Below are positions 245 to 19,659 of a stretch of DNA of 41,598 bases, piece by piece. How positions within the stretch are numbered: position 1 is the first letter of the stretch; every line of letters starts with the position of its first letter. Both the position numbers and the translations under genes were made by a program. This stretch comes from a virus (Duplodnaviria; Caudoviricetes), in the IMG/VR virus record IMGVR_UViG_3300029317_000004, positions 1-41,598 of that record. One strand, given 5' to 3'. A model generated the notes under the pieces. The model was not told the DNA's origin. It was given only the letters and a program-made list of their open reading frames with translations, and did no database searches.

Positions 245-1402
245 ATGCAGTTTACATCCCTCTCTATAGCAAGCCTTGAGCCTTCCAAGACCGTTAAAAC
301 TATCCGGTCTAGTGTAGACAAAGGGTTCGCTATTAAAGTCTCACCAGCAGGCTCTAAGACCTTCCTATACATATTCAAGCGACAAGGTAAGACCGTCCAG
401 CGCAACTTAGGGCGTTATCCTGACGTTTCCGTTGATGACGCGAGATTAGCTTATTTAACCTATAAGAACGGTAAACACGCCACACCAAAGTCTAGCGCGC
501 TAGACCTTCCCAAAAAGTCAGAATATTCCATCAAAGAGGCGTGGCGCGATTACGAACGCGAAGTGGGACACTCTCATTTAAGCCTTGGCGTAAGAAAACA
601 ATACGGAGCTATTATCTATGAGTTTATTAATATTCGCGGTAATTTGCCTGTTGTACGTTTGGATGGACGACTAATCAAAGAATATCTTCGCCTATTCAAG
701 GCATTTAAAACCAAACCTAATAAGATTAAAGTGGCGCTATCAACGCTCTGTAAGTATTTAGTTGAGATAGACAAGTTAGACACGAATCCTTGTGTCGGCC
801 TGCCCACTAAAGCCAGTAAACCTAAAACACGTAAGTTCAGCCGTGAGGAGCTTCAAGCGTTCCTACCTATCCTCAACAGCTCTGATGTAGCTTCGCACAA
901 TAAAGACGTTCTAAAGATAATCCTACTAACCTTAGCGCGTGTCAGTGAAGCCGCAAATATGGAGGTGTCCGAGCTGGACTTAGAGCGAAGCCGTTGGATT
1001 CTCCCTGCGGCGCGTTCTAAAAACGGTAAGGAAATGCTAATAGCGCTACCTCAACAGGCCGTTGCTCTCCTTAAGCCTCGTATAGCTGATTCTAAGGACG
1101 GCTACGTGTTCACCAGCTCAAAAGGTAGTCTACCTAGTCGGCACGGTGTTAGGCAGGCGCTTATGCGCTTATGTGAGGCGGCAGGCTGCTTACCTACGTC
1201 TTCGCATGACCTCCGTAGAACAGCGGCGCACCATATTAATAGTTTAGGTGTACCCTCAGACCTAATCAGTAAATTAATGAACCACTCACCTTCCGGTGTT
1301 ACCGCCACTACATATATTCAGGCCTCCTTGTTCGACTATGAAGTGGAGAAGCGGCAGGCGCTAGAAACATGGTCTGAAACCCTTACGCAGTGGGGGCTAT
1401 AG
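245..1402 (+). CDS. int: Tyrosine integrase with N-terminal arm-binding domain
   Basis: N-terminal KVSPAGSKTF...LGRYPDVSVDDAR arm-binding motif; catalytic R (ARVSE), K (SKNG), HDLRR, MNH, Y; next to attL. Confidence 0.95.
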   Translation: MQFTSLSIASLEPSKTVKTIRSSVDKGFAIKVSPAGSKTFLYIFKRQGKTVQRNLGRYPDVSVDDARLAYLTYKNGKHATPKSSALDLPKKSEYSIKEAWRDYEREVGHSHLSLGVRKQYGAIIYEFINIRGNLPVVRLDGRLIKEYLRLFKAFKTKPNKIKVALSTLCKYLVEIDKLDTNPCVGLPTKASKPKTRKFSREELQAFLPILNSSDVASHNKDVLKIILLTLARVSEAANMEVSELDLERSRWILPAARSKNGKEMLIALPQQAVALLKPRIADSKDGYVFTSSKGSLPSRHGVRQALMRLCEAAGCLPTSSHDLRRTAAHHINSLGVPSDLISKLMNHSPSGVTATTYIQASLFDYEVEKRQALETWSETLTQWGL

Positions 1403-4349: not shown

Positions 4350-4365
4350 AACAGGAGTATGCCGC

Positions 4366-4527
4366 ATGGCTTCCACACTCGCACTACCCACCACCGCAGA
4401 AGCGATGGACTTAGCTCAAGAGGGACTCTTCGTACAAGACGTGTACGACTTTGAACCGCTTGATTACTACTTTGAAGAAGAAACCCTTGAAAGTTACTCA
4501 ATAGAAAACTACCACACAGGAACTTAA
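4366..4527 (+). CDS. Small acidic hypothetical protein (53 aa)
   Basis: AGGAG RBS before ATG 4366, in frame with ORF 4309..4527; stop abuts the SSB start. Confidence 0.6.
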   Translation: MASTLALPTTAEAMDLAQEGLFVQDVYDFEPLDYYFEEETLESYSIENYHTGT

Positions 4528-5199
4528 ATGATTTTAGACGACAAACAATTACTGATTACCCCTAAAGCACCTGCTTTATTCCCTCATTTAGTCGAGCCTG
4601 ATAACTATGAAGGCTCTTTAGACTACAAAGTGTCCCTAATCCTTGATCCGGCAGATACCGGCGTACAGGAACTTTTAGATGATATTACGGAAACAGCCGA
4701 AGCTCAGTTGGCCTTAGCGGTTAAGGAGCTGACAGCGAAGGGCGGTAAGCATAAGAAGCTGGCGGGTGAAATGTCACTGTCACTGCCCTTCAGTGAAGAA
4801 TACGAAGAAGACGGCAGTGAAACAGGGCGCTTCATCCTCAAGGCTAAATCGAAGGCCGCAGGTGTGACTGCCAAAGGTAAGGCGTGGGAACGCAAAGTTC
4901 CACTATTTGATGCGGGCACTTCAGGTAAGGTTAAGAAGATTCCACATGGAACTGTCCCTATCTTTAGTGGCGCAGTGCTGAAAGTTGAACTCGTTACTAA
5001 TGTCTACACCGCCACCGGCTTAAAACTCGCAGGCGTATCTTTCTTCATTAAAGCTGTACAGGTTATTGCTGTATCAGAAGGCAATGACTCAAACGGCTTC
5101 GGCTGTGAAGAAGGTGGCTTTGATGCCAGTGACTTAGAAGAACAGGACATTGCGCCAGACTTTGAAGATGACGTAGCCGGTGTGGATGAAGACTTCTAA
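4528..5199 (+). CDS. Single-stranded DNA-binding protein (T7 gp2.5-like)
   Basis: TPKAPALFPHLVEPD...YKVSL N-terminus, KAVQVI, acidic tail ending in Phe (DEDF); syntenic position. Confidence 0.85.
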   Translation: MILDDKQLLITPKAPALFPHLVEPDNYEGSLDYKVSLILDPADTGVQELLDDITETAEAQLALAVKELTAKGGKHKKLAGEMSLSLPFSEEYEEDGSETGRFILKAKSKAAGVTAKGKAWERKVPLFDAGTSGKVKKIPHGTVPIFSGAVLKVELVTNVYTATGLKLAGVSFFIKAVQVIAVSEGNDSNGFGCEEGGFDASDLEEQDIAPDFEDDVAGVDEDF

Positions 5200-5594
5200 T
5201 GTCCCTCTTTAACGTGCAGCGTGAACATCTGCTGACGTTAAGGCTTCCTTACCCTCCGTCAATAAACAATTATTACGGTACAACCCGTTCCGGTGGACGC
5301 TTCATTAAGAAAGCCGGTACGGATTATCGCACGAAGGTTATCGACATATTGCAGGCCACCACCTTCGGTAAAGAGCCGTTAGCGCACAGATTACAGGTCT
5401 GGATCGAAGAGTACCCACCAGATCGCCGTAGACGTGATTTAGACAACACTAAAAAGGCGCTATTAGACGCGCTCACTCATGCAGGTATATACGCCGATGA
5501 CTGCCTTATTGACGACCTTAGAACCGTGCGCGGTGAGGTTATCAGAGGCGGCTATGTGCGTGTGTATATCTCTAAAATAATTAAGGAGAAATAG
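5199..5594 (+). CDS. rusA: RusA-family Holliday junction resolvase
   Basis: LPYPPSINNYY and PPDRRRRDLDNTKKALLDAL...DD motifs. Confidence 0.9.
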   Translation: MSLFNVQREHLLTLRLPYPPSINNYYGTTRSGGRFIKKAGTDYRTKVIDILQATTFGKEPLAHRLQVWIEEYPPDRRRRDLDNTKKALLDALTHAGIYADDCLIDDLRTVRGEVIRGGYVRVYISKIIKEK

Positions 5595-5777
5595 ATGCGC
5601 GACCTAAAGCAAGAAGTCATTGATAGGCACGTCAGTAAGGCCGGTTTAAGAGGCCGAATAGACGCTAAATGCGCGGAGTGTATCTATGACCCTACAGGTG
5701 AGGGAACGTGGCGTAAGCAGGTGTCTAATTGCACCGCTAAGAGCTGCCCCTTATATGACGTAAGGCCTACAAACTAA
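5595..5777 (+). CDS. Small Cys-rich hypothetical protein
   Basis: AGGAG RBS; CAEC...CTAKSCPLY possible metal site. Confidence 0.7.
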   Translation: MRDLKQEVIDRHVSKAGLRGRIDAKCAECIYDPTGEGTWRKQVSNCTAKSCPLYDVRPTN

Positions 5778-5799
5778 CACCTATAACAGGATTAATATT

Positions 5800-6006
5800 A
5801 TGAAAGTAGAAAAAAAAGAACGTACTCAAGGTTTCGCACCTATTACCTTGGAGCTGACTATCGAAACAGAAGCCGAGCTAAAGGCTCTACAGGCACATCG
5901 TGAGAGGGTGGCCGAATCAGACTACAGGAACGCAGGTGTTGGCGCTGCTAGCGCTGTTATTTTGGAACGCCTTGTGGATCAGCTTTACAGGGTAGCTAAC
6001 CTATAG
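5800..6006 (+). CDS. Hypothetical protein
   Basis: AGGA RBS, fills the operon. Confidence 0.65.
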   Translation: MKVEKKERTQGFAPITLELTIETEAELKALQAHRERVAESDYRNAGVGAASAVILERLVDQLYRVANL

Positions 6007-6008
6007 CC

Positions 6009-6425
6009 ATGAAGAAAATCTTACAGAAAGCCTCTGTAGATTTTCTGATTGTCCACTCCACCTACACTGCTGCACGCCTTGATCTAACAGTCGAGGACGT
6101 GTTGAACCGCCGTATCAAAAACGGCTTCCCTGACATAGGGTTTCATCACGTTATCACACGTGACGGCAGTGTAGAACTCGGTGTTCCATTAGACACCGTA
6201 GGGACACACACCCCGCGTTTTGCTGACTCAGCTATCGGTATCTTACTGGTAGGCGGCAAAACCTCGCGGGGTGTTCCTTCAGATAACTACACGCAAGCTC
6301 AGAAACAAAGCCTCAAGACCCTCTTAACCACGCTCAAGCTAACCTACATAAACGCCAAAGTTATCGGTAGCGGCGAAGTGTTAGGCGGGTCTTCCCCTCA
6401 TTTTGACCTACAGGAGGTTACATGA
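6009..6425 (+). CDS. T7 gp3.5-like amidase-fold protein, probably catalytically inactive
   Basis: LIVHST, DIGFHHVITRDG, SAIGILLVGG and NYTQAQKQSL match T7 lysozyme; the C-terminal Zn ligands are replaced. Confidence 0.85.
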   Translation: MKKILQKASVDFLIVHSTYTAARLDLTVEDVLNRRIKNGFPDIGFHHVITRDGSVELGVPLDTVGTHTPRFADSAIGILLVGGKTSRGVPSDNYTQAQKQSLKTLLTTLKLTYINAKVIGSGEVLGGSSPHFDLQEVT

Positions 6426-6619
6426 CACAACTCGATAAGATCAATAATCACCTAATATCACACGGGCAGATTACCTCAATAACCGCCATCGGTTTGTATG
6501 GTGTCACGCGGTTAGCTGCTGTCATTAACAAATTGAAAGCCGAGGGTGCAACAATCAAGACGGAGTACAAGAAAGGCGTGCAATGTAACCGTTACGCCAT
6601 CTACTCGCTAGAAGCCTGA
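6422..6619 (+). CDS. Small winged-helix DNA-binding protein
   Basis: ITSITAIGLYGVTRLAAVINKLK...YAIYSL pattern; GGAGG RBS, ATGA overlap. Confidence 0.7.
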   Translation: MTQLDKINNHLISHGQITSITAIGLYGVTRLAAVINKLKAEGATIKTEYKKGVQCNRYAIYSLEA

Positions 6620-6620
6620 C

Positions 6621-8252
6621 ATGGGTGACGCGACTTTTCTACATAAAGAACCGTGTCCTTCTTGCACCAGTAAAGACAACTTAGCACGTTACGATGATGG
6701 CAGTGCTTACTGCTTCGGCTGTGAATACGTGGAGTCAGCAGGCGGTTCAACTACCGCAGCTAAGAAGCCTCCGGTGCAGAAAGACCTCGTGCCTCTTGGT
6801 GAGTTTCTACCGTTAGATAGCCGTAAAATTAACGCGGTGACGTGCCTTAAGATGCGTTATACCATAGGAACGTATAGTGGCAAGAAGGCGCATATTGTCA
6901 ACGTGCCTGACCAAGACGGTAACGCGGTTGCACAGAAGATACGACTTGCCGGTAAGCAGTTCCGTTATATCGGTGACACTAAAAAAGCAGGCTTAATCTT
7001 TCAGGATATATGGCCTGCGGGTTGCTCTACTAAGGTGGTCATCTGCGAGGGTGAGATAGATGCGCTCAGTGTTTCTCAAGCGCAAGATAATAAGTATGCG
7101 GTAGTGAGTGTCCCTAACGGCGCTAAGTCAGCACTGAAGGCGTGTAAGGCTTCCTATGAATACCTAAACACCTTTGCTGAAATAGTGGTCATGTTCGATA
7201 TGGACGAGGCCGGTAGAGAGGCTACTAAAGATATTAGTAAGCTCTTCGGCAGTAAGGCGCTAATCGCTACGCTACCTGAGAAGGACGCTAATGAGTGCCT
7301 TAAAAAGGGTCAGAGCAAGGCTATTGTAGTTGCTATCTGGAACGCTCAACCATACCGACCTGATGGTGTGGTATCGCTCAGTTCACTCAGGGATGAAGTC
7401 ACTAAAACCGTAGAACACGGTAAGCCGTGGATTTACCCTAAGCTGACTGAGGCTTCCTACGGCAGACGTGAAGGTGAGCTGTACTTTATCGGTGCAGGTT
7501 CAGGTATCGGCAAAACTGACTTCTTCTTGCAACAGGCGGAAGCTGACATTGCAGACGGTGAAGGTGTTGCTCTGTTCTTATTAGAGCAGCCGGTACTAGA
7601 AACCGCTAAACGTCTGTGCGGCAAGCAGGCTAAGAAGCGCTTTCACGTACCCGATGAACCGTTTACGGAGGAGGAGCTACTAGCCGCCTTCGACACGCTG
7701 GACAGTTCTAAGGCCTACCTTTACGACCACTTCGGCAGTAAGGATTGGGAAACCATTCGTGACAATATCCGCTGGCTAAGTGTCGCTGAAGGCGTTAAGC
7801 ACTTCTACGTTGACCACCTAACCGCCTTAGTGTCACACGAAGATGACGAACGGCGTGCGCTGGAACGGATAACCGCTGAAATGTCCTCACTGGCACAAGA
7901 GCTAGGTATTTACCTCTACGTCATCAGTCACCTAAGTACGCCTGAAGGTAAGCCGCATGAAGAAGGCGGTCGCGTTATGGCGAAGCACTTCAAAGGTTCA
8001 AGAGCTATCGTTTACTGGGCGCATTTCATGTTCGGCCTAGAACGCGACACTCAAGCTGAAGATGAAGAGCTGCGGCAAGTAACCACCTTCCGCGTCCTTA
8101 AAGACCGCTTCACAGGTAAGGCTACCGGCCTAACTTTCTATCTCGGTTACGAATCTGAAAGCGGCATCTTATATCAACAGCCTGACGATTGGACACCACC
8201 TAACAGTGATACAGGGAGCGGCTTCACGGCTGAACCTAATCACGACTTTTAA
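6621..8252 (+). CDS. Primase-helicase (T7 gp4-like)
   Basis: Zn finger CPSC...CFGC, TOPRIM CEGEIDALS and FDMDEAG, Walker A GAGSGIGKT, VDHL, ISHL, LKDRFTG. Confidence 0.97.
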   Translation: MGDATFLHKEPCPSCTSKDNLARYDDGSAYCFGCEYVESAGGSTTAAKKPPVQKDLVPLGEFLPLDSRKINAVTCLKMRYTIGTYSGKKAHIVNVPDQDGNAVAQKIRLAGKQFRYIGDTKKAGLIFQDIWPAGCSTKVVICEGEIDALSVSQAQDNKYAVVSVPNGAKSALKACKASYEYLNTFAEIVVMFDMDEAGREATKDISKLFGSKALIATLPEKDANECLKKGQSKAIVVAIWNAQPYRPDGVVSLSSLRDEVTKTVEHGKPWIYPKLTEASYGRREGELYFIGAGSGIGKTDFFLQQAEADIADGEGVALFLLEQPVLETAKRLCGKQAKKRFHVPDEPFTEEELLAAFDTLDSSKAYLYDHFGSKDWETIRDNIRWLSVAEGVKHFYVDHLTALVSHEDDERRALERITAEMSSLAQELGIYLYVISHLSTPEGKPHEEGGRVMAKHFKGSRAIVYWAHFMFGLERDTQAEDEELRQVTTFRVLKDRFTGKATGLTFYLGYESESGILYQQPDDWTPPNSDTGSGFTAEPNHDF

Positions 8253-8264
8253 TAAGGAGAACAC

Positions 8265-8465
8265 ATGAACGATACCGCTTGGAAAGAAGTAACCACTGAC
8301 GGTTACCCGCAAGTAACGGGTGACTACATTTGTAAGTTCGAGAACCCGCAAGAGTCACCGGAAATACTTGAATTTGATACAGAGGAAGACGCTGACCAAT
8401 GGGTAGGCTACGTCAGTGCTAAAGTCATCTGGCGGGTTACTAGCTGGGCGGAGATACCGCAATGA
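8265..8465 (+). CDS. Hypothetical protein
   Basis: AAGGAG RBS; overlaps the RNR start. Confidence 0.65.
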   Translation: MNDTAWKEVTTDGYPQVTGDYICKFENPQESPEILEFDTEEDADQWVGYVSAKVIWRVTSWAEIPQ

Positions 8466-10432
8466 TAGGAATAACTGCCCCTAGTACCCGCGCTGAGATT
8501 ATCACACGCCGTACTTATAACCGACCCTTGAACGATGCAGGTACACACTTTGAAACGTGGGCAGGCACGGTCAACCGCGTCATCATGCACCAAGCGTGGC
8601 TATGGGAGAGAGCGAAAGGCTCACCGCTGTCTGAGGCGGAGCAGGCAGAGCTGAATGAGCTGAAGACGCTCAAGATGGAGCGTAAGGTTTCGATGTCGGG
8701 ACGTACCCTATGGTTAGGCGGAACGCAGATAGCTAAAACAAGGGAAGCCTCACAATTTAACTGCTCGTTCTTACGCCTTGAAACGGCCTACGATATGGTG
8801 GATGCTTTGTGGCTGCTTATGCAAGGTTGTGGTGTAGGCTTCAGTCCTGTGGTAGGCACACTCAATGGCTTTCAAAAGCCGATAGAGAACATTCGCGTTA
8901 TTAACTCAACACGTACCACAACAGGCGGAGTAGAGCATAACGAGGAGTCCTTTGAAGCAGGTGTGTGGACTATCAAAGTAGGCGATAGCGCAGAAGCGTG
9001 GAGTAAGTCTATTGGTAAGCTGCTGGCTGGTAAGTACAATGCTACTGAGCTGGTGTTTGACTTCAGTGAAATCAGGCCAGCCGGTGAAAGGCTCAAAGGT
9101 TATGGCTGGATCAGCTCAGGTGACACGGCGTTAGCGAAGGCGTTAGTGGCTATCTCAGGTATCTTAAATAAGCGTGCCGGTAGCCTGCTTTCCCGTATGG
9201 ATATTCTGGATGTTACTAACTGGCTCGGCACGATACTGTCTTCCAGACGCTCAGCGCAGATAGCTATATTCTGCATGGACGAACCGGAGTGGCAGGAGTT
9301 CGCTATCGCTAAAAAGAATTGGTGGCTAACAGGTAATGAGCAGCGGGAACAGTCGAATAATTCACTCGGCTTTAACAAGAAACCTCAACGTGCCGAACTG
9401 CAACACATCTTCGACTTAATGCTGGACTCAGGCGGCAGTGAGCCAGCCTTCATTAATAAGGAGGTAGCACGCCAACGTGCGCCGTGGTTCTACGGAGCTA
9501 ACCCTTGTGTTGAGATATTGCTGGGCAATAAATCATTCTGCAATCTCACCGAAGTAGACATAGCAAAATTCAAAGGTGACAGTGCAGGTCTTCACCGCGC
9601 CTTATACATCGCAGCACGGGCTAATTACCGTCAGACCTGCGTTAACTTACGGGACGGCGTGTTACAAGAAGCGTGGCATCTTAATAACGAGTTCCTGCGT
9701 TTATGTGGTGTCGGTTTAACAGGTATCGCTCAGCGTGACGACTTAGGCGCACATGACTTACAAATGATGCAGCGTGAGGCGACTTCAGCGGCCTATAGCA
9801 TGGCAGATGAACTCGGCTTACAACGGCCTAAGAATGTCACTTGCGTCAAACCTTCAGGCACGCTCAGTAAGATTATGGACACCACAGAAGGCATCCATAA
9901 GCCGTTAGGTCGCTATATCTTCAACAACGTTAACTTCGGTAAACACGATGCACTCGTGCCACTATTGAAGGAAGCCGGTTATAAGGTCATCCCGAACCCT
10001 GCTGACCCTGAAGTCATCTTAGTCACCTTTCCGGTCGCTTGGGATAATGTCGAGTTTGATAAGTTCAACGGCATGGATGTTAACTTGGAATCCGCAGTCA
10101 CGCAGTTAGAGCGCTATAAAAAGTATCAAGTGAACTGGACGCAGCAAAATACCAGCGTAACTATTTCCTACGCACCTGAAGAGGTGTATCAGATTATCGA
10201 GTGGCTACTAGCTAACTGGGAACACTACGTTGGCGTGAGCTTCTTATACCGCACAGACCCGACTAAGACAGCCGAGGACTTAGGGTATCTGTACCTGCCT
10301 CAAGAGGTGGTCACGAAAGAAGCCCATGACGCTTACGCCGCCACACTCAAACCCATAGATTTAAGCAAAGGTAATGAGTTGGATGCTTTGATAGATGAAG
10401 AGTGTTCTACCGGCGCTTGTCCGATTAGATAG
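8462..10432 (+). CDS. nrdJ: Class II (adenosylcobalamin-dependent) ribonucleotide reductase
   Basis: RRTYNR, GRTLWLGG, FNC, NPCVEI, CNLTE, KPSGT, C-terminal CSTGACPIR; no beta subunit gene present. Confidence 0.93.
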   Translation: MIGITAPSTRAEIITRRTYNRPLNDAGTHFETWAGTVNRVIMHQAWLWERAKGSPLSEAEQAELNELKTLKMERKVSMSGRTLWLGGTQIAKTREASQFNCSFLRLETAYDMVDALWLLMQGCGVGFSPVVGTLNGFQKPIENIRVINSTRTTTGGVEHNEESFEAGVWTIKVGDSAEAWSKSIGKLLAGKYNATELVFDFSEIRPAGERLKGYGWISSGDTALAKALVAISGILNKRAGSLLSRMDILDVTNWLGTILSSRRSAQIAIFCMDEPEWQEFAIAKKNWWLTGNEQREQSNNSLGFNKKPQRAELQHIFDLMLDSGGSEPAFINKEVARQRAPWFYGANPCVEILLGNKSFCNLTEVDIAKFKGDSAGLHRALYIAARANYRQTCVNLRDGVLQEAWHLNNEFLRLCGVGLTGIAQRDDLGAHDLQMMQREATSAAYSMADELGLQRPKNVTCVKPSGTLSKIMDTTEGIHKPLGRYIFNNVNFGKHDALVPLLKEAGYKVIPNPADPEVILVTFPVAWDNVEFDKFNGMDVNLESAVTQLERYKKYQVNWTQQNTSVTISYAPEEVYQIIEWLLANWEHYVGVSFLYRTDPTKTAEDLGYLYLPQEVVTKEAHDAYAATLKPIDLSKGNELDALIDEECSTGACPIR

Positions 10433-10531
10433 TAGAAACTAGACACGAAGGCTTACCTCTGAATACGGAGTTTTAGACTGAACAGGCAGGGTGGTCACTG
10501 TCGCTGGATATGTAACCAGCTTTATTAAACA

Positions 10532-10948
10532 ATGAGATTAAAAACAATGAGTACAGAAAAGCCATTAACGGCCTCGATCTATAGCGAGAAGACGCAGCAC
10601 AACCTGAAGGAGATGGGCGTAGGGCTGACACAGGCCTGCCACGGTATTGCACGTGAATGTGGCTGGTGGGAAACAACTACGGAGCGCGATGTTCCACGGT
10701 TATTAATGCTGTGTGTTTCGGAGTTAGCCGAGGCGATGGAAGCCGATAGAAAGTCGCTTATGGACAGCCACCTTTCACAGCGAAACGGTTTAGAGGTGGA
10801 GCTGGCTGACACTGTTATTCGTATCTTTGATATGGCAGGCGGCTTAGGCCTCGATGTGGCAGGTGCATTAGCTGAGAAGCTGGCCTATAACACAACACGT
10901 CACGACCATAAGCCTGAAGTAAGAGCTGATGGTGGTAAGAAGTATTGA
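10532..10948 (+). CDS. MazG-like NTP pyrophosphohydrolase
   Basis: SELAEAMEADRK...EVELADTVIRIFD acidic motif; start may be ATG 10547. Confidence 0.8.
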   Translation: MRLKTMSTEKPLTASIYSEKTQHNLKEMGVGLTQACHGIARECGWWETTTERDVPRLLMLCVSELAEAMEADRKSLMDSHLSQRNGLEVELADTVIRIFDMAGGLGLDVAGALAEKLAYNTTRHDHKPEVRADGGKKY

Positions 10949-10950
10949 AG

Positions 10951-11010
10951 GTATAACGCAATAAATAATCCGCCACGGTAAAGCTGTGCGGATTATTTGC
11001 CTTGTTAGGC
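10951..11010 (-). other. Integron attC site 1 (60 bp)
   Basis: Minus strand: R'' GCCTAAC, AAGGC, L'' AAATAATC, stem-loop, L' GATTATT, TATTGC, R' GTTATAC. Confidence 0.85.
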
Positions 11011-11029
11011 GCATAACGGAGTAAGTAAC

Positions 11030-11239
11030 ATGGGATATGAAGAAAGGTTAGCAGGAATAAAGGGGATCCACCCAGATATGCCTATCAAGCAGGCTAAATC
11101 TGTCGCTATTCTTCTCGATATGGGGTGGGAATGGTGCGGTCTTGGTGCGAATAATTCAGTTGATATTAAAAGAACGATAATGAATGACTTTACTGAGAGC
11201 GCTTATATACGAGAGGACGGCACTTTTAGGTGCGCCTAA
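11030..11239 (+). CDS. Cassette-borne hypothetical protein A
   Basis: GGAG RBS; bounded by the perfect inverted pair GTTAGGCGCA (11004) and TGCGCCTAAC (11231); stop TAA lies inside the R box. Confidence 0.75.
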   Translation: MGYEERLAGIKGIHPDMPIKQAKSVAILLDMGWEWCGLGANNSVDIKRTIMNDFTESAYIREDGTFRCA

Positions 11240-11294
11240 CGCTATAAATAAGCCGCACAGCTCTATCGTGTCGGGCTTTATTGACTTGTTATGT
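11234..11294 (-). other. Integron attC site 2 (61 bp)
   Basis: Minus strand: R'' ACATAAC, AAGTC, L'' AATAAAGC (one extra base), stem-loop, L' GCTTATT, TATAGC, R' GTTAGGC. Confidence 0.88.
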
Positions 11295-11318
11295 TGCAAC
11301 TAGAAAAAGGAAATAATC

Positions 11319-11537
11319 ATGAGTGATAATGGTAAAAGCTCTGCTATGCGCAAGCAGGATTTGAGAATAAAAGAGCTTGAGCAAAAACTTATTGAAACAG
11401 CTCAAGAACTTGGGTGCATGATAGATATGGCAAACGCAAGGTTAGAGCTGGGCATATCTATTTCAGATACGGATGACCCCGACTATTTTGACAGTCAGAC
11501 AGTACACGAGGCTATGATGCTTGCGAAGGCAATATAA
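11319..11537 (+). CDS. Cassette-borne hypothetical protein B
   Basis: AAGGA RBS; bounded by GTTATGTTGC (11288) and GCAATATAAC (11529), 1 mismatch; stop TAA lies inside the R box. Confidence 0.75.
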   Translation: MSDNGKSSAMRKQDLRIKELEQKLIETAQELGCMIDMANARLELGISISDTDDPDYFDSQTVHEAMMLAKAI

Positions 11538-11586
11538 CGCTATAAATAAGCCGCCGTGCTTTTGCGGTCGGGCTTTATTGACTTGT
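11532..11586 (-). other. Integron attC site 3, interrupted in R'' by the intron
   Basis: Arms identical to attC2 (TAACGCTATAAATAAGCCGC...GTCGGGCTTTATTGACTTGT), then the sequence breaks at TTGT|GTACG. Confidence 0.85.
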
Positions 11587-12165
11587 GTACGCCCGACATG
11601 GGCATTAACTAATGAGGTGAAAGTCCTCTGTAGGAAAATCACGCTCTATTACCTATCAGTATTAGAGAATAACTACTAGCGAATGGCAAGTGCTTATCCG
11701 CAAGGATTGGTTCGAAGGAAGCCGCTAGCAAAACTGCGAGCTAATGAACAAAAACATCATATGAGGCGTAGGCTGGAGGCGAGTTGGCAGAGCCGGCCCC
11801 ACGAAGTGCTTTGGGTCCAAGATAACGAAGCCATGTGTTCTAACGGCCACCGTAAATGATGTAGTTGCGCAGGGAAAGTTAATGCCCTTATCTGGGGAGA
11901 TCTGTTTAACAAGCGATCGGTAAGCAACCAGTTAGGCCCTGGTCTATAAATGCCTTGGCTCCAGAGAGTGTATCGCCTCTGGAGAGCGAAACAGATACAA
12001 ACCGATAGCGCCAACAAGGGTAACCTTGTCGGTGATTAAGCAGAAGTCAGCAGACGGCATAGTAGCCCAACGCCCAGCGTAATGGCTGGGACATGGTGAA
12101 GGCCTGAATTCGAAAATCAATGAGGAGCCTGTGCAGCTCAGTTGTTCCGTATCCGACCGGATTTA
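11587..12165 (+). mobile_element. Group IIC(-attC) intron, 5' fragment (approx. domains I-III), no RT ORF
   Basis: 5' end GTACGCCCGACATGGGC, GAGGTGAAAGTCCTC hairpin, GAAGGAAGC, GCAGAAGTCAGCAGACGGCATAGTAG and GAAGGCCTGAA are typical class C intron motifs; inserted after TTGT of an attC; 3' boundary approximate. Confidence 0.8.
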
Positions 12166-12211
12166 GGGGCGCTGGCGCTTTATGCCGTCGGTTTTAAACG
12201 ACTGGTTATAA
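12160..12211 (-). other. Partial attC site 4
   Basis: Minus strand: R'' TTATAAC, CAGTC, L'' GTTTAAAA, central stem; the R' arm is degenerate or fused to intron sequence. Confidence 0.6.
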
Positions 12212-12240
12212 GGCTTTTAGATTATTAAAAAGGAAACAAA

Positions 12241-12423
12241 ATGCAGATAGATGATATTGAGCAGGAAGAGCTTGAGGCTAATTGGTCAATGGGCGACTAC
12301 ACAGATAAAGAATGTAGGAATTGTGGTAGAAATAGGGTTCGCAAATGCCAGAACGGTAAGACTAGATGCGAGAAATGCAACTGGATAAAAGAAGATGACC
12401 AGTATTGCGACTTAGCCTTATAA
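12241..12423 (+). CDS. Cassette-borne Zn-finger-like hypothetical protein
   Basis: CRNC...C...CEKC; AAGGA RBS; bounded by the perfect 11-bp inverted pair GTTATAAGGCT (12205) and AGCCTTATAAC (12414). Confidence 0.75.
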   Translation: MQIDDIEQEELEANWSMGDYTDKECRNCGRNRVRKCQNGKTRCEKCNWIKEDDQYCDLAL

Positions 12424-12445
12424 CAGCGTAATAAGCCGCGCACCA
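12418..12445 (-). other. Half attC (L'-R') or attI-like site at the array edge
   Basis: Minus strand GCGGCTTATT-ACGCT-GTTATAA, similar to the attC2/3 arm; no partner arm found before polA. Confidence 0.5.
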
Positions 12446-12545
12446 TCCACGAAATTAAATACACAACACCTATCAGAGGCATTTTTACGCCTATCCATTA
12501 GCTCATGCGCTAGTAGTTGCGTAGGGTAAACCAAAAGGAAGTATT

Positions 12546-14366
12546 ATGAAAATCTTTGACATAGAAACAGACGGCTTCCTAGAAGACCTTACGCAGATAC
12601 ATTGCGCGTGGCTCTACGATACGGAAACTGAGCAGTACACTTGTTACAACAATCAGAACAACGGACAGCTTTCTATCGCTGACTTCTTAGCTGAAACCAG
12701 CAGCGGGGACTTACTCGCTCACTACGGTAACGGCTTTGATTATCTCGCCATCAAGCAGCTCTACCCAACGTGGACACCTGCTGGAAAGTTGTACGATAGC
12801 GTGTTAATTAGTCAATTGATCTGGACAAACCTGAAAGACCTCGACTTCGGGCGGTTGACTAAACCACGCTTCAAGAACTTCCCTAAACGGCTTATCGGCT
12901 CTCATTCTCTAAAAGCATGGGGCTACCGCTTAGGCGAGTATAAGGGTGACTTCGGTGAAACAACCGATTGGGGTGTTTGGTCGCAGGATATGGAGGATTA
13001 CTGCAAGCAGGATGTAGTGGTCACTAAGAAGTTGTGGGAGCTAATCTTAACTAAGAATTACAGCCAACCCGCTATTGAGCTAGAGCATGACTTCGCGGCT
13101 ATCATCAAGCGACAAGAACAGTTCGGCTTCAAGTTTGACGAGAGGAAAGCACGTGCGCTACAAGGTCGGCTAATGATGCGTAAAGCGGCACTCGCTGACG
13201 AGTTACAGGCGTTCTTCTTACCGTGGGAAGTGGTCGTTGATCCGCACTTTGTACCCAAGGTAAACAACAAGGCACGTGGTTATATTAAAGGCGTACCTTT
13301 CGTTAAAAAGAAGATTATCACCTTTAACCCGAATAGCCGTGACCACATCGCTGACCGGCTAATAGCCCTCTATGGGTGGAAGCCAACAGAGTTCAGTGAG
13401 AGCAGCCATAAACCTACCGTAGACGAAACGGTACTGAAGACACTGAACTACTCGCCTGCACCGTTGTTGATTGAATACCTCACCGTTAATAAGCGGCTTG
13501 CGATGTTAGCAGACGGTAAACAGGCGTGGCTTAAGCAGGTCAAGCAGGGGCGTATTCACGGTCGTGTCAACACGATGGGTGCGGTCACCGGCAGGTGTAC
13601 ACACTCTAACCCTAATGTCGCTCAAGTCCCTGCGGTCAGAGCAGCTTACGGGGCTGAGTGCCGTGAACTGTTTACCGTAGATAGCGGCTACACACTTATT
13701 GGTGCAGATGCTTCAGGTTTAGAACTGAGGTGTCTAGCGCATTATATGGCAGCTTACGATGATGGAGCTTACGGGGATGTCGTGCTTAACGGCGATATTC
13801 ACACCGAGAACCAGCACGCCGCAGGTCTGCCCACACGTGATAACGCTAAGACCTTTATTTACGGATTCTTATACGGCGCGGGTGACGGCAAGATAGGGGA
13901 GATTGTCGGCAAAGGTAGCGGTGAAGGCAAGCGTCTACGCGCTAAATTCCTCGCCTCACTACCCGCGCTAGAAAGTCTTACTACAGCCGTCAAAGCTAAA
14001 GCCGTGCGCTCTAAGAAACTAAAAGGTCTGGATGGGAGAGTGTTACACGTTCGCTCACCACATGCAGCCCTCAACACGCTCCTGCAATCAGCCGGTGCGC
14101 TCATTATGAAGCAAGCCTTGATCGAGTTAGAACGGCTGTTACAAGAGGCAGGACTAAAGAATAGCCACCAAAGACCGACCCGCCCTGACTATGAGTTCGT
14201 TAATAACGTGCATGACGAATACGGCATACAGGTACTTCCTGAACACGTAGCACTAATTGAGAAGCAGGCCACAGCAGCGATGACCTTAGCCGGAGAACAC
14301 TTCAGCTTTAGGTGTCAGATTGACGGTGAAGCTCAAGTAGGCAAAACGTGGAAGGACGTACATTAA
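12546..14366 (+). CDS. Family A DNA polymerase (T7 gp5-like)
   Basis: Exo I FDIETDG, HSLKAWGYRLG, TGRCTH, motif A DASGLELR, motif B RDNAKTFIYGFLYG, motif C VHDE. Confidence 0.98.
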   Translation: MKIFDIETDGFLEDLTQIHCAWLYDTETEQYTCYNNQNNGQLSIADFLAETSSGDLLAHYGNGFDYLAIKQLYPTWTPAGKLYDSVLISQLIWTNLKDLDFGRLTKPRFKNFPKRLIGSHSLKAWGYRLGEYKGDFGETTDWGVWSQDMEDYCKQDVVVTKKLWELILTKNYSQPAIELEHDFAAIIKRQEQFGFKFDERKARALQGRLMMRKAALADELQAFFLPWEVVVDPHFVPKVNNKARGYIKGVPFVKKKIITFNPNSRDHIADRLIALYGWKPTEFSESSHKPTVDETVLKTLNYSPAPLLIEYLTVNKRLAMLADGKQAWLKQVKQGRIHGRVNTMGAVTGRCTHSNPNVAQVPAVRAAYGAECRELFTVDSGYTLIGADASGLELRCLAHYMAAYDDGAYGDVVLNGDIHTENQHAAGLPTRDNAKTFIYGFLYGAGDGKIGEIVGKGSGEGKRLRAKFLASLPALESLTTAVKAKAVRSKKLKGLDGRVLHVRSPHAALNTLLQSAGALIMKQALIELERLLQEAGLKNSHQRPTRPDYEFVNNVHDEYGIQVLPEHVALIEKQATAAMTLAGEHFSFRCQIDGEAQVGKTWKDVH

Positions 14367-14384
14367 TTTAACAGGAGTAATTAG

Positions 14385-15113
14385 ATGAAATTAGAATTAA
14401 GAGCGGTACAGGTAGCCAGCCTTGCCTATAAAGACGCGCAGGCTTTCAATGATGCAGGTTACTACAACGTGGCCGGTATCACAGACGAGGACACCAGTAC
14501 GCAAGCATTTATCGTGGAGGATGACGATTACCTCTATTTAACCTTTACCGGCACTGAGAGCTTTACCGACCTAATCACCGACCTTCGCTTCCTTAAGAAA
14601 AAGGCCTTTGGTCAGTTCCGCTTACACCGTGGCTTTTGGGAAGCATGGCGCTCAGTGTCTGACCGTGTAGCCGGTGAAGTTATGCAGCGTCAATTAGATG
14701 CTAAGGCTAACGAAGATATTATGAAGCCTGTTGTTTACTGTGGTCATTCCCTCGGCGCGGCCTTAGTAACGATAGCTGCTGCCACACATAACCCTAATTA
14801 CTGCATCACATTTGGTTCGCCACCTGTAGGAGGCAAGCGCTTTCGTACGCATACGGCAGAAGCTAATACGCTCTACTTACGCTACGCACTAGACGGCGAC
14901 CCTGTACCACGCTTGCTTAAGTGGAATCCGTTTTATAGACACGTAGGGCGCTTATTGTTCATCGACTCTGAAGGTGAAACACATATCAATCCTAGCTGGT
15001 GGTCGGCGCTGAAGATGCGACTCAGCGGTTCGAGAGATATAACTGACCACGCTGTTAGAAGCTATCACACACAAGTATTCTTAGATAAGGAGGGGCGATG
15101 TACAAGGAATTAA
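14385..15113 (+). CDS. Class 3 lipase-like alpha/beta hydrolase
   Basis: FTGT, LHRGF, nucleophile motif GHSLGAA, TFGSP, DPVPRL, late DH. Confidence 0.88.
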   Translation: MKLELRAVQVASLAYKDAQAFNDAGYYNVAGITDEDTSTQAFIVEDDDYLYLTFTGTESFTDLITDLRFLKKKAFGQFRLHRGFWEAWRSVSDRVAGEVMQRQLDAKANEDIMKPVVYCGHSLGAALVTIAAATHNPNYCITFGSPPVGGKRFRTHTAEANTLYLRYALDGDPVPRLLKWNPFYRHVGRLLFIDSEGETHINPSWWSALKMRLSGSRDITDHAVRSYHTQVFLDKEGRCTRN

Positions 15114-15523
15114 TCAGTCAGCTTGAACACCACGAGGGCTTCCGCTCGCATGTGTATAAGGACACGGTGGGTATTAATACCATTGGCTTCGGGACTAACT
15201 TAGACAAAGGCATTACAAAGCGTGAGGCCGGTGCTTTACTCACCGCTACGCTGGAAGAACTACAGTTTGAACTCCTCGCTAGTAAACGCACACGCGGTAT
15301 CTGGGAAACACTCAGTAACCGTAGGCGTGCCGTTATCCTCAACATGCTCTACAACTTAGGACTGACGCGGCTCTACGGGTTTAAGCGTATGTGGGCAGCC
15401 TTAGAAGCCGGTGATTACAATAGAGCCTCGAAGGAAATGCTGGCTTCTAAATGGGCGCGGCAGGTTGGTGAGCGTGCTAAGGACTTGGCAAGGCAAATGG
15501 AGGGGGACTTATGGCAACTTTAG
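15098..15523 (+). CDS. Lysozyme-type endolysin (T4-like/GH24)
   Basis: HEGFRSHVYKDTVGINTIGFG (E-x8-D-x5-T), NMLYNLG, SKWARQVGERA. Confidence 0.9.
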   Translation: MYKELISQLEHHEGFRSHVYKDTVGINTIGFGTNLDKGITKREAGALLTATLEELQFELLASKRTRGIWETLSNRRRAVILNMLYNLGLTRLYGFKRMWAALEAGDYNRASKEMLASKWARQVGERAKDLARQMEGDLWQL

Positions 15524-15711
15524 AACAGAAGCGGCTACTAGCGACCACACTACAACGTCAGTTTCAAGGGTTACAAGAACTCTTAGAAAGAGCTAAAGCT
15601 GAGGATGTGGAAGTACGTCTAGCCACACGCGGCGGTGACACGTTGGTAGCCAACCTCCAAAGCAGACCTACCAAGCTAGAAGTTCGCACAATCTTAGGTG
15701 TAGACGTATGA
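15511..15711 (+). CDS. Hypothetical protein
   Basis: GGAGG RBS; overlaps both neighbours. Confidence 0.65.
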   Translation: MATLEQKRLLATTLQRQFQGLQELLERAKAEDVEVRLATRGGDTLVANLQSRPTKLEVRTILGVDV

Positions 15712-16463
15712 CCACGCTCTTGATAGATACTGATATTGTGGCCTACCGCTTAGCGGCGGTAAGTGAAACTGACACAGCTTTCGGAAAAACAGTCGATGAC
15801 TTAGGTGACGTGTGCTTACAGGCGGATAGTGTCATAGCGGGGCTGGTTGAGAAACTTAACGCCACGGACGTGATTATGTGTTTATCCGATAAGCAGAACT
15901 TCCGTTATGACGTACTGCCTACTTATAAATCAAACCGTAAAGGCGTGGAGCGGCCTGAGTTACTACAGGCTGTTAAGGATTATCTAGCGACTGAATACAA
16001 TAGTCGTGGCTATCCCTACCTAGAAGCCGATGACGTGATGGGTATTCTAGCCACCCATGACCACGCCGTAAGTGGGCGTAAGATTATTGTGTCGGAAGAT
16101 AAAGATATGCGAACGATACCTTGCGAGCTTTATGCACCACATCGTCCTGAGTTAGGTGTTATCACGATTAGCGAGCTGGATGCGGATAGATTCCTTATGT
16201 GGCAAACAATCTGTGGCGACAGCACCGATGGTTATAAAGGCGTTCTTGGAGTAGGTAAGACGAGCGAGTGGGCTAAGGATGTAATAGCCGCTGACAGGGA
16301 AGACCTGTGGGAGGAAGTGCTATGCGCTTATGCCAGTAAGAAGCTAACCGAAACAGACGCATTACAGCAGGTGAGAGTGGCACGCATTTTACGGGCTGAA
16401 GACTTCAATATAAAAACTAAGGAGATTACTTTATGGCAACCAGAGCTGCTAATGAATCGTTAA
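15708..16463 (+). CDS. 5'-3' exonuclease (T7 gp6-like)
   Basis: LLIDTD, NFR...YKSNR, LEADDVMG, SEDKD, GDSTDGYKGVLGVG. Confidence 0.95.
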   Translation: MTTLLIDTDIVAYRLAAVSETDTAFGKTVDDLGDVCLQADSVIAGLVEKLNATDVIMCLSDKQNFRYDVLPTYKSNRKGVERPELLQAVKDYLATEYNSRGYPYLEADDVMGILATHDHAVSGRKIIVSEDKDMRTIPCELYAPHRPELGVITISELDADRFLMWQTICGDSTDGYKGVLGVGKTSEWAKDVIAADREDLWEEVLCAYASKKLTETDALQQVRVARILRAEDFNIKTKEITLWQPELLMNR

Positions 16464-16741
16464 ATGACGCTACACCTGAGCAGTGGGATAAGGCCAGTAA
16501 AGCTAGTCCACTGGACACTCAGGTAGGCGGAAAACACTACACCGATATGAAGATACAGCCGATTGAATATTCAATGGCTAATGACTTAGATGCGTGTCAG
16601 CACACCATCATTAAATATGTATCACGCTTTAGAAACAAAGGCGGCGTAGAAGACTTGCGTAAGGCTCGTCAAACGCTCGACCTACTAATTCACTTTGAAA
16701 CGAATAACACATACGGAGAAACACATGCTCAACCTAAATAA
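16433..16741 (+). CDS. DUF3310 / T7 gp1.7-like protein
   Basis: QVGGKHY...IQPIEY...IKYVSR...KGGVEDLRKA. Confidence 0.85.
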   Translation: MATRAANESLNDATPEQWDKASKASPLDTQVGGKHYTDMKIQPIEYSMANDLDACQHTIIKYVSRFRNKGGVEDLRKARQTLDLLIHFETNNTYGETHAQPK

Positions 16742-17021
16742 TGTAAGTAAAGGCACACGGCTAGCCGCTAAACAGCAGCTTAAATTCGACAATGCAGCTA
16801 AAGGCGCTGTAGCGTTAATCGAAAACTATCAGAACGAAGCTAAGGCCTCACAGAAGGCTGCGGAGCTTTTAGCGGCTGAAGCGCAAGAGCTTAAAGAAAA
16901 GGCGAAGGCTTGTGAGCTACGCAGTGCGGATATGGAAGTATTAGCGACACGTACCAAGCAGGTAGCCGGTCGAATCTCTGAGCTGTTAGGGCTTGGAGAA
17001 ACTGAAGTAGGCGAGGTGTAA
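16725..17021 (+). CDS. Coiled-coil hypothetical protein
   Basis: GGAG RBS before ATG 16725; Ala/Glu/Lys-rich helix. Confidence 0.7.
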   Translation: MLNLNNVSKGTRLAAKQQLKFDNAAKGAVALIENYQNEAKASQKAAELLAAEAQELKEKAKACELRSADMEVLATRTKQVAGRISELLGLGETEVGEV

Positions 17022-17022
17022 C

Positions 17023-17205
17023 GTGAAGATATTAAGCGTCTTTCTCATAACCCTCTATGTAGCCCTCGCAGCCGGTTGGATTCAGAACCTTATTAAGCTA
17101 ACGGAGTGTGACTTTGAAGCCCCCTATAAGGCCGAGATTCTTCACACGGCTGGCCTTATCCCTCCTATCGGAATGGTGACAGGTTGGTTAGACGTAGGAA
17201 AATAG
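17023..17205 (+). CDS. Small membrane protein
   Basis: GAGG RBS, GTG start, hydrophobic N-terminal segment. Confidence 0.7.
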   Translation: MKILSVFLITLYVALAAGWIQNLIKLTECDFEAPYKAEILHTAGLIPPIGMVTGWLDVGK

Positions 17206-17515: not shown

Positions 17516-19657
17516 TTACTCACGTTCTACGAGTAACTTATCTTCGCCTAACTCACGCGCTAAAGCACGCACTAAGGTGGCTATCCCTCTATCGTAATCT
17601 AAAAGGTCAGTCCCTTTGTAGCGCTCACGTAGTTTAGCATCCAGCTCTTTCTCAAGTGCCTTGCTGTGATTAGGTGTCATCTTACCGTCAGCTAGATGCT
17701 CACCTGCGGTTGCCAGCTTCGCCTTCTTTATTCCTTGTGTAATATCGCGCAGAAAACCTAAAGAGGCGAAACCTACACCGGCAGCCCTACCTGTAGGTAA
17801 AGCAAGACGTGCCATCACACCTACTGCCGCTCTCGCTGTGCCTGAAGGGTTATCATCCGAGGCTATCTTGGCTCTTTTACCGCGTTGACTCCAAGCACCG
17901 ATAGCGTCATCAATCTGCTTTACATAGGCCTTACCGTATAACACCTCTTTAGACTGTGGCGATAGACCCGCCCATACCCGCTTAAAGGCCTGCTCGTTAA
18001 ACTGAGGGACACCGCCTTCAGCCACGTCTTTAACGTTCTTGGTAGCGGCTTGAAACGCTTTAAGTAAAGGCGCTTGCTGCATATTCGCCCACACCTTTTT
18101 ATCCGCCGCGTTGCCTAAGTTCAGCTTACCACGCAGTCTTTTAAGGTCGTTGATATTGCGAGGACGTGTGAAGTGTTCCACCGCCTGTGAAGGTAGCATT
18201 CTAAAGTCATCCGCACCGGCACGCTTGGTTGTCATCTTCTCTACTGCGTCCCCTTGTTCCCACTTAACCTTAAAGTCTGCACGTGCCTTACGCGCCTCAC
18301 GTCCTAGCTTCACCAGCTCGTTACTCGCTCCTTGATGCACCATCGCACCATCTACCCATGTTTCTAACAGCTTCTTTGTCTGCCCTAGAACACGGTTCTC
18401 GCCCTTAGAGGCTAACGGTTTATAGAGGTCGTTAATCTCCTGCACTAAGTCCTCGTAGTTACCCGCAGTTACCGGCTTCTCAGCAGCGGCAGTAGGGGAT
18501 AGGTTACCACCCATCGGTTGACCCTGTGCGTCTAAAAGAAACACATCATCACCCTTCTTCTGGATGACACCATACTTCTTAAGCACCTTGTTTAGTTTAC
18601 CCACCGTACCATCGGCTGAAATCTTATGGTCATTCAGTAGCTGGGGCAGAGCTTCCTCTAAGCCGTCCGTATTAAGCGTCTTCCCACCTGTAGAGGCATC
18701 GAGCTTCTTATACAGGTCTTTATAGGTGTCTGCATCCTGTGTACGGAGGTTGCCCAGTAGTTCGCTTAAGTCCTCACCAACTGCGGTGTTATCGGAATAA
18801 GTACCACCTGTCTGCTGCACAAAACCTTCAGCCTTCGCCTTTATATCCAGCTCTTGTTGAGCCATAAACTGACGTAGTGTGTCCTCGTCGTTTAGCTTCA
18901 TAATGTCGGACTTCTCACGTAAGGCGGTGTTGTTGCCTGTCGCGTCTGCCATGTCTAGCTCAAAGCCGCCTTTAGCGCGTGTGTCAGCTATTAGGTCTTC
19001 AGCCTCATCAAGAGGTCTTCTAGCCGTTTCCGCAACACCCTGAACGTCCCTAGACCTACGAAACTTATTAACCTTAGCGCCTACCAGATCAATAGCGCCT
19101 TGACCTGCAACACCTAAGCCAGCGCCCCAAGCAGCCGCTTTACCTCGCTCGCCTAAATCACCGCGTGTAGTCGCGCCCTCAACAAGCGCCCCTTCAAGCG
19201 CCATTGCTTTATAGCCTCTAGCGCCTAACTTAGCCGCGCCACCTATCACGCCTGCGCCAGCGACACCTGTAGCTAACACCTCCCCACCAAACTCACCGAT
19301 AGAGGCGGCAGTAGACTGTTCTGCCAAGGCTTCCCAGCTCTTACGTTCGCCTTCTATCGTGTTATTCAGTGTCGCTAAGGCATCATCGTCACCTGTAGCG
19401 CGGTAGTACCCATCTTGTACACCTCTAACGATATTCGCAGCGCCACGCCCTAAACCGACTAAGGCGCGTTCGCCTACACCCATATCATCTATGGTACTCT
19501 GAATACCTACGGCGGCGTGATCTACCGGCGCTTGTGGTGCTGCCGCCTGCTCCGCCTCAACCTCGTCAATCATAGCAATAAGGGCGTTTACATCGTCCCG
19601 ATTACCCGCAGCATCCGAACGCTCTAATTCAGCGTAAAGCTCGTCTAATTCATTCAT
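17516..19657 (-). CDS. Putative ejection/internal virion protein
   Basis: Large Ala/Gly-rich helical protein with hydrophobic segments at the end of a podovirus late operon; positional inference. Confidence 0.6.
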   Translation of the reverse strand: MNELDELYAELERSDAAGNRDDVNALIAMIDEVEAEQAAAPQAPVDHAAVGIQSTIDDMGVGERALVGLGRGAANIVRGVQDGYYRATGDDDALATLNNTIEGERKSWEALAEQSTAASIGEFGGEVLATGVAGAGVIGGAAKLGARGYKAMALEGALVEGATTRGDLGERGKAAAWGAGLGVAGQGAIDLVGAKVNKFRRSRDVQGVAETARRPLDEAEDLIADTRAKGGFELDMADATGNNTALREKSDIMKLNDEDTLRQFMAQQELDIKAKAEGFVQQTGGTYSDNTAVGEDLSELLGNLRTQDADTYKDLYKKLDASTGGKTLNTDGLEEALPQLLNDHKISADGTVGKLNKVLKKYGVIQKKGDDVFLLDAQGQPMGGNLSPTAAAEKPVTAGNYEDLVQEINDLYKPLASKGENRVLGQTKKLLETWVDGAMVHQGASNELVKLGREARKARADFKVKWEQGDAVEKMTTKRAGADDFRMLPSQAVEHFTRPRNINDLKRLRGKLNLGNAADKKVWANMQQAPLLKAFQAATKNVKDVAEGGVPQFNEQAFKRVWAGLSPQSKEVLYGKAYVKQIDDAIGAWSQRGKRAKIASDDNPSGTARAAVGVMARLALPTGRAAGVGFASLGFLRDITQGIKKAKLATAGEHLADGKMTPNHSKALEKELDAKLRERYKGTDLLDYDRGIATLVRALARELGEDKLLVERE

Positions 19658-19659
19658 CG

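Follow-up and report, generated by a model that had tools for sequence, protein, structure and literature searches.

The recombination of integron cassettes through the bottom strand of their attC sites is held to exist so that the cassette genes face the Pc promoter. Clusters of attC sites without an integron integrase (CALINs) have been published for phages, with 17 clusters in 10,705 genomes, and five of the six phage attC sites tested were recombined with attI1 by the integron integrase IntI1 (Qi et al. 2023, PMC9892861). Moreover, genomic attG sites are used by IntI for the insertion of cassettes (Loot et al., 10.1101/2022.09.11.507474), and CALINs can contain group IIC-attC introns (PMC7923331), the published target of which is TTGT/T in the R'' box of the attC bottom strand (PMC7923331, PMC3001079). 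In the present study, a stretch of viral DNA of 41,598 nt (IMG/VR record IMGVR_UViG_3300029317_000004; hereafter the window) was analyzed with respect to a group of attC sites located at positions 10,951 to 12,445, between a mazG-like gene and a T7-like DNA polymerase gene (polA). This group is a true, partly decayed cassette array in the early operon of a T7-like prophage, with its genes on the bottom strand, probably assembled by host IntI in trans and probably read from the phage transcript.

The locus resembles the phage CALINs of PMC9892861 in being an attC cluster without intI that carries small open reading frames (ORFs) of no known function, but the cases of that study considered here are without a T7-like prophage and without an intron. 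Two of the phages, TJE1 and PH101, are called typical there, and the text is silent on bottom-strand genes. Group IIC-attC introns (S.ma.I2, Sh.ba.I2 and G.s.I1; PMC3001079, PMC7923331) share with the intron of the window the 5' end, the insertion at TTGT/T in R'' and the outward promoter P1out. These introns are described in opposite direction to cassette transcription, whereas the window intron, owing to the inversion of the cassettes, runs in sense to the genes; it differs further by its location in a prophage, the lack of domains V-VI and a P1out directed against a phage operon. Single attC sites lacking integron integrases (SALINs), small CALINs and attG insertion are comparable in that IntI acting in trans at genomic GTT-type sites leaves integrase-less attC sites, but this was shown for bacterial chromosomes, and it explains neither a half site nor uniform inversion (10.1101/2022.09.11.507474). 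The classical cassette with an aadA7-type attC, the control sequence of which was taken from the supplement of PMC9892861, has the same order R''-5 nt-L''(8)-loop-L'(7)-6 nt-R', extrahelical bases and matched ends; in the window, by contrast, the gene is on the bottom strand, intI is missing, and the first extrahelical base of attC2 and attC3 is A in the top strand (T in the bottom strand) instead of C (G). Neither systematic bottom-strand genes in phage cassettes nor an IIC-attC intron in a phage attC was found described in the literature searched, which was mostly open-access and taken without figures.

attC sites and strand polarity

As a first-pass annotation made from the sequence alone had claimed, two whole attC sites, one interrupted site and two halves are found between mazG and polA together with three ORFs of 60-72 aa, at the places it had given (Table 1); neither the strand polarity nor the nature of the interruption had been noticed. 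The sites consist of R'' and R' boxes with the conserved AAC/GTT, L'' and L' boxes, spacers of 5 and 6 nt and extrahelical bases. For their scoring, the covariance model R1 was built on 37 attC sites from other viral contigs, none of them out of the window; due to the fact that these training sites were selected by a pattern, one attC family is represented. In the R1 alignment 96% of the cells are paired, and 71 double-sided changes were counted compared with 23 in shuffles. With both strands scored, eight matches were obtained in the 41.6-kb window. Three sites were recognized at 54 (attC2), 37.2 (attC3) and 29.9 bits (attC1), all best on the minus strand; attC1 was matched on plus as well (21.1 bits), and the other four of the eight matches reached at most 12 bits with E>1. 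Both half sites were missed by R1 and were identified by their box anatomy and, for attC5, by the 12/13 repeat of attC2; no partner arm of attC5 was found downstream, either by sequence or with the R1 model. The arms of attC2 and attC3 have 20 nt identical, and attC1 and attC4 differ from these two in sequence. Copies identical or near-identical to attC2 are present in other contigs. In attC1, a 5-nt spacer, an 8-nt L'', a 7-nt L' and a 6-nt spacer were identified; its fold has a z of -3.95 on the plus strand, and its predicted crossover lies 8 nt from the mazG stop. At least two clustered attC sites by our own covariance model and no intI nearby characterize the locus as a CALIN and not as a complete integron. 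The absence of intI had been proposed at first pass and was confirmed in the window, since TIGR02249 matched in 0/1 record and the arm-type phage integrase is the sole recombinase.

Minus is the top strand of the attC sites, and all three genes (3/3) are located on the recombinogenic bottom strand, i.e. plus. attC2 and attC3 score solely on minus in R1, attC2 read on minus is laid out like the aadA7 control (R'', 5 nt, 8-nt L'', loop, 7-nt L', 6 nt, R'), and the extrahelical bases and the 5/6-nt spacers fit minus at the sites where they are readable. Because the attC matches are on minus and the ORFs on plus, the cassette genes are oriented opposite to the classical polarity, in which the gene is on the attC top strand and upstream of its attC. 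In the array, each attC precedes its gene and supplies the stop of the preceding gene. That plus is the bottom strand follows independently of the model from the intron, which sits at TTGT/T on plus.

Cassettes and their mobility

The three units of the array extend from G/TT to G/TT with complementary R' and R'' ends like gene cassettes, and one of the three was encountered in another array. Over 10 nt, the ends of cassettes A, B and C match their own partner at 10, 9 and 10 positions, compared with 4-8/10 in the six cross-pairings; the inverted end pairs of the first-pass annotation are therefore perfect in A and C and imperfect in B. The pairing with the own partner extends even beyond the conserved GTTA, and the terminal inverted repeat of cassette C measures 11 bp. 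This better match with the own partner agrees with units that were once circles, as had been suggested, and with hybrid sites in the array. The predicted circle junctions have computed bottom-strand folds of -23.5 kcal/mol (cassette A) and -9.6 kcal/mol.

In a 681-nt contig of run X3, which belongs to another study, an attC identical to attC2 is followed by 248 letters of different sequence, a variant attC, ORF2 and again different sequence. The contig matches the window at 11236-11538 with 5 differences, with loose ends before 11237 and behind 11538, and the part of the match beyond the predicted cassette B amounts essentially to the conserved TAA and C. Judging from the two sequences, cassette B moves as a unit, having other neighbours on both sides in X3 and breaks at the predicted G/TT crossovers; the contig itself may be of viral or bacterial origin. 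Loose ends of this attC family in runs X1, X3 and X5, of which X1 may be the source sample, show both polarities. When the ends listed were read by eye, a ribosome site plus start was recognized on plus in 5/5 of those behind R'' (one being cut at AT), and a ribosome site plus ATG on minus in 3/7 of those before R'.

Intact sites on both sides remain for cassette A alone, which by prediction can still be excised; cassettes B and C are probably frozen. For this reason the host-IntI exchange system proposed at first pass fits the history of the array more than its present, although the attC cassettes are genuine and IntI in trans is the most likely agent. Among the joints listed no excision joint was present; contigs drop rare variants.

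Each ORF is preceded by a purine-rich ribosome-binding motif 3' of the R'' box and stops inside the next R' box, which for ORF3 is that of attC5. Homologues with 63-90% identity were found for all three ORFs, so these are considered real genes; several homologues share the C-terminal residues encoded by the R box. ORF1 has three other proteins with 75-77% identity, each ending in FRxA, and no match in Pfam, PHROG, NCBIfam or Atlas. For ORF2, 13 other proteins are 63-82% identical, and the nearest Atlas cluster was at 0.90, with 96% viral entries among the members with a record, while no family was assigned in Pfam, PHROGs, NCBIfam or Atlas. Searches of the viral contigs with ORF2 and ORF3 resulted in weak matches and one true ORF2 homologue (locus L391). 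A frameshifted ORF3 homologue followed by a bottom-strand attC is present in viral locus L155. A strict attC pattern specific for the window matched 0 viral contigs, and the complete interval, compared by blastn with 50,697 phage records, had no match.

Interpretation of mazG as a cassette of the window was rejected, because both an upstream attC and a matching R'' are lacking. Elsewhere, mazG homologues (58-63%) occur as inverted cassette genes (L157:92-152, 158-640 and L196:1435-2510); in L157 it forms a complete inverted unit, the ends of which match over 9 bp. A Lar-like anti-restriction gene is located downstream in a mazG-homologue cassette array.

Intron remnant in attC3

The interruption of attC3 is the 5' remnant of a group IIC-attC intron, with the 5' end of this class and group II domains I-IV scored as present; domains I-III and about 20-25 codons of its own ORF are retained. 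Domains V-VI are absent (RF00029 was not found in the window, though present in both comparators), and catalytic domains V-VI with a reverse-transcriptase ORF of the IIC-attC clade are accordingly missing. Because domains V-VI are missing, the remnant is predicted from its sequence not to splice. It matches 346 plasmid records, the best being 75-82% identical, and aligns from its first base with Photobacterium and Shewanella plasmid copies. The intron starts directly after TTGT (11583-11587), where intron-free sites in runs X1 and X3 go on with T. Near-identical relatives occur in the same sequencing runs; in three runs they diverge past 12178, where the window enters the R''-L'' half of another attC, and the position of the junction with attC4 was set by these loose ends at 12178. 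We infer that a deletion, possibly via a short GGCGC match, took away a fourth cassette together with the 3' part of the intron and one half of attC4. The predicted P1out has the version and domain-I position given in Table 3 of PMC3001079 and points antisense to ORF2, ORF1 and mazG, i.e. against the phage operon.

Three viral contigs share the intron start, and 0/3 are among sense-strand cassette genes. In addition, internally deleted ORF-less IIC-attC-type introns retaining domains V-VI were observed in L081:3001-3704, L392 and L393, two of which are in viral contigs and antisense to their neighbours, and L394 has an IIC-attC-type copy after a hairpin, in sense to a 503-aa gene.

Inverted cassettes in viral and bacterial collections

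In order to compare phages and bacteria, the same attC pattern was applied to viral contigs, giving 73 loci, and to 7 of 64 parts of the bacterial genomes, giving 151 listed stretches, of which 150 loci were used, 80 of them with full flanks; viral contigs may carry host flanks and genomes may carry prophages. Orientations were assigned for one attC family by a longest-ORF rule. Counting one single site per locus, with duplicates and loci with less than 250 nt of flank dropped, the orientation was inverted in 38, ordinary in 5 and tied in 14 of the viral sites (n=57), compared with 15, 52 and 59 of the bacterial sites (n=126). Cassettes between two sites were on the bottom strand in 37, on the top strand in 13 and unclear in 23 viral cases (n=73) versus 15, 138 and 44 bacterial cases (n=197). 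Overlapping loci were also combined into clusters, of which those with a cassette were counted (28/61 viral, 55/123 bacterial); here the majority was inverted in 21, ordinary in 3 and tied in 4 viral clusters and in 3, 46 and 6 bacterial clusters, respectively (Fisher p 3e-12). Inversion is thus a phage trait, and this general pattern is stronger than the single decayed locus.

End repeats of at least 7 bp were found in 28/37 inverted viral cassettes. PHROG matches at 1e-5 were obtained for 11/37 inverted viral ORFs, seven being DNA methylases (methyltransferases) or Mom-like enzymes (L086, L094, L099, L104, L122, L146 and L151), for 0/15 inverted bacterial ORFs and for 5/45 ORFs sampled randomly from the 138 ordinary bacterial ones, none of them a methylase. 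In the five phages of Qi et al. scanned with R1, sites were detected in three. PH101 has four sites on plus with the annotated genes on minus, and ctTUS972 has two sites on minus with the genes on plus, both being inverted. These published CALINs that are inverted by R1 are located in KR534323 (75919-77987) and MW202573 (2281-2703).

Assembly of the array and alternative explanations

Host IntI supplied in trans is, as we infer, the most likely agent of assembly. The antisense strand would have received a first cassette at a GTT located immediately 3' to the mazG stop; an insertion there would spare the gene and fix the polarity. Later arrivals mediated by attC would be expressed only if likewise inverted. 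Next, attC3 would have been invaded by a IIC-attC intron, whose bottom-strand target places it in sense to the phage genes, and the deletion described above would have followed. ORF1 to ORF3 would be read from the early transcript, with promoters likely at distant copies of a 21-nt motif. In this way, the inverted polarity could function as an address, silent from the host Pc and expressed in a phage operon, and ordinary host cassettes would come to lie antisense on insertion into the phage array. The first-pass annotation had described promoterless cassettes read from a phage operon: the array is indeed located in the early operon, but its genes, being on the bottom strand, are not those of ordinary host cassettes. 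Were the phage genes oriented along the direction of fork movement, the lagging strand would be templated by the bottom strand, a situation that raises attC folding and excision (PMC5371416). The cumulative GC skew tracks gene direction, turns at about 17 kb and gives no replication direction. The half site at the polA end could be either the scar of a lost cassette, a trace of block capture or a landing pad.

Several observations weigh against an assembly by IntI within the phage. A half site at the polA side is not predicted by simple attG insertion, and for attC2 and attC3 as naked strands the fold was not better than that of shuffles (z about 0). The 21-nt motif was not found in or near the array. 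attC matches were found in 0/80 polA loci, which have 35-53% identity and include no close relative, and none of 80 loci from a mazG search has a close polA adjoining. The comparison of the mazG-polA interval called for at first pass yielded no empty or alternative allele in these polA and mazG loci; the pieces of near-identical polA in runs X2 and X6 are short, none spanning the interval, and run X7 gave no piece. The ORF2 homologue of viral locus L391 ends in the same TAAC without an attC match. The orientation counts refer to a single attC family and the longest-ORF rule, TJE1 has ordinary polarity by R1, and inverted cassettes exist in bacterial arrays too (15/153 classed) as well as beside this attC family within the same runs.

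Because inverted cassettes occur in bacterial arrays and in the same runs, the array could have been captured as a block, i.e. an array piece with its intron, from a host or another phage, taken up by illegitimate recombination without IntI ever acting on the phage. In agreement with such an event, the polA side ends in a half site, both polarities of this attC family are seen in run X1, which may be the source sample, near-identical relatives of the intron are found within those runs, and an array near polA is missing in the 80 relatives. We nevertheless regard it as unlikely, since the mazG-side end falls exactly on the R' box and three inverted cassettes out of three are not expected from the bacterial proportion, unless selection filtered them or the donor was a phage. 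It is quite improbable that the units are passed from phage to phage not by host IntI but by homologous or short-repeat recombination acting on the attC repeats, or else by the IntI of a co-infecting phage. The identical arms of attC2 and attC3, the single-stranded-DNA-annealing protein, resolvase and exonuclease also encoded by the phage, and the concentration of the inverted pool in viral contigs would suit it, but the ends pair with their own partner as circles require, attC1 and attC4 differ in sequence from attC2 and attC3, and the X3 breakpoints are at R boxes, though identical arms also permit crossover inside the repeat.

The presence of a IIC-attC intron in the array, the published idea that these introns take part in cassette formation (PMC7923331) and the fact that at this locus the transcribed strand is the bottom one could be read as an intermediate in which the intron joins attC sites to phage genes. 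This is very unlikely, as cassettes A-C already have matched ends with the intron in one site only, none of the three viral contigs with the intron start has it among sense-strand cassette genes, and cassette B is without intron traces in X3. Standard host cassettes in ordinary polarity, with plus as the attC top strand, would be compatible with the stop of each ORF in a TAAC box, as in ordinary cassette genes, and with the 21.1 bits of attC1 on plus; this is already contradicted by the minus-only scores of attC2 and attC3, by the spacers and extrahelical bases and by the bottom-strand target of the intron on plus, and can hardly be credited at all.

A wider and tentative proposal is that phages may keep their own pool of inverted cassettes and swap them via host IntI. 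Polarity would split a single recombination system into host-expressed and phage-expressed pools, an attC half site might serve as landing pad replacing attI, and IIC-attC introns would gain a transcribed home on the sense strand. Such a phage-expressed pool would be enriched in genes of DNA-modification and anti-restriction type, and the recombinogenic strand would be the phage coding strand. Bacterial cassette arrays have been reported to store anti-phage genes (10.1101/2024.07.02.601686, 10.1101/2024.07.02.601719). A large class of inverted cassettes concentrated in phages implies that the integron machinery serves the phage side too and bears on the question of cassette origin; the present locus, although partly dead, adds the intron as a biological strand marker and a cassette caught in two arrays.

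Prophage context

The window comprises a complete temperate T7-like (Autographiviridae-like) prophage plus host DNA at both ends, as is evident from a single-subunit RNA polymerase, T7-like replication genes, an integrase and att repeats; thrS-like host DNA forms the right end. The plus strand encodes integrase, single-subunit RNA polymerase, primase-helicase, ribonucleotide reductase, the mazG-like gene and DNA polymerase, and the minus strand encodes the structural genes.

Table 1. Features of the cassette array and its prophage surroundings (window coordinates)
Feature	Position	Strand	Evidence or remark
Direct repeat, 47 bp	81-127 (inside tRNA-Val) and 40306-40352		Prophage bounds
Arm-type phage integrase, not IntI	245..1402	+	Arm-DNA-bind_3 plus Phage_integrase domains
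mazG-like pyrophosphatase gene, left flank	10532..10948	+	PHROG 5658, E 9e-49; likely start 10549
attC1, complete	10951..11010	-	R1 29.9 bits minus, 21.1 plus; predicted crossover G/TT at 10957/10956
Cassette A, 283 bp, attC1 plus inverted ORF1	10957..11239	-	10/10 terminal inverted repeat
ORF1, 69 aa	11030..11239	+	Stop codon within attC2 R' box
attC2, complete, aadA7-like architecture	11234..11294	-	R1 54 bits, E 1.7e-10; crossover 11240/11239
Cassette B, 298 bp, attC2 plus inverted ORF2	11240..11537	-	Unit match in run X3 contig
ORF2, 72 aa, phage-type family	11319..11537	+	Stop within attC3 R' box
attC3, R'' box split by intron after TTGT	11532..11586 (R1 match 11532-11592)	-	R1 37.2 bits
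Group IIC-attC intron 5' remnant, 592 nt	11587..12178	+	Rfam RF02001 E 7e-24, RF01998 E 9e-11
P1out, predicted outward intron promoter	11661..11689	-	TTGCCA-17-TCTAAT; only window match, 0.02 expected
Half attC4, R''-L'' arm only, deletion-joined to intron remnant	12179..12213	-	Box anatomy
ORF3, 60 aa, Cys-rich zinc-ribbon-like, cassette C	12241..12423	+	PHROG 24897, E 4e-15
Half attC5, L'-R' arm only, array 5' end in integron polarity	12418..12442	-	12/13 nt common with attC2
T7-like DNA polymerase (polA), right flank	12546..14366	+	PHROG 17, E 8e-137

Within the array, no convincing plus-strand promoter was found. A sigma-70 scan of 2.4 kb gave one weak match compared with a shuffle mean of 3.7, and the array 5' end is an attC half site. 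The 21-nt motif is present in four copies at 1405-1425, 4249-4269 and 4321-4341 (plus) and 39583-39603 (minus), with 0 expected by chance, and is likely a promoter of the phage RNA polymerase, to judge from its sequence; the nearest upstream copies are about 6.6 kb before the array. The SOS link suggested at first pass was not supported, as a LexA-like box was not found within the window.

The RNA polymerase gene stops within GCCTAAC, followed 24 nt on by TTGTTAGG, and this segment (4171-4209) resembles an attC that has lost its hairpin; with only 12 bits in the model and an E of 1.7, chance may account for it. The structural genes (17516-37176) are oriented opposite to the replication genes (245-17205), an arrangement unusual among T7-like genomes. 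The segment 38246-40192, adjoining attR, carries a transcriptional regulator along with an anti-restriction gene (PHROG 2059). Between the terminase genes (37209-37385), three repeat copies with the palindromic core TGGTCAATAAGTGACCA were observed, which are possibly operators or packaging signals.
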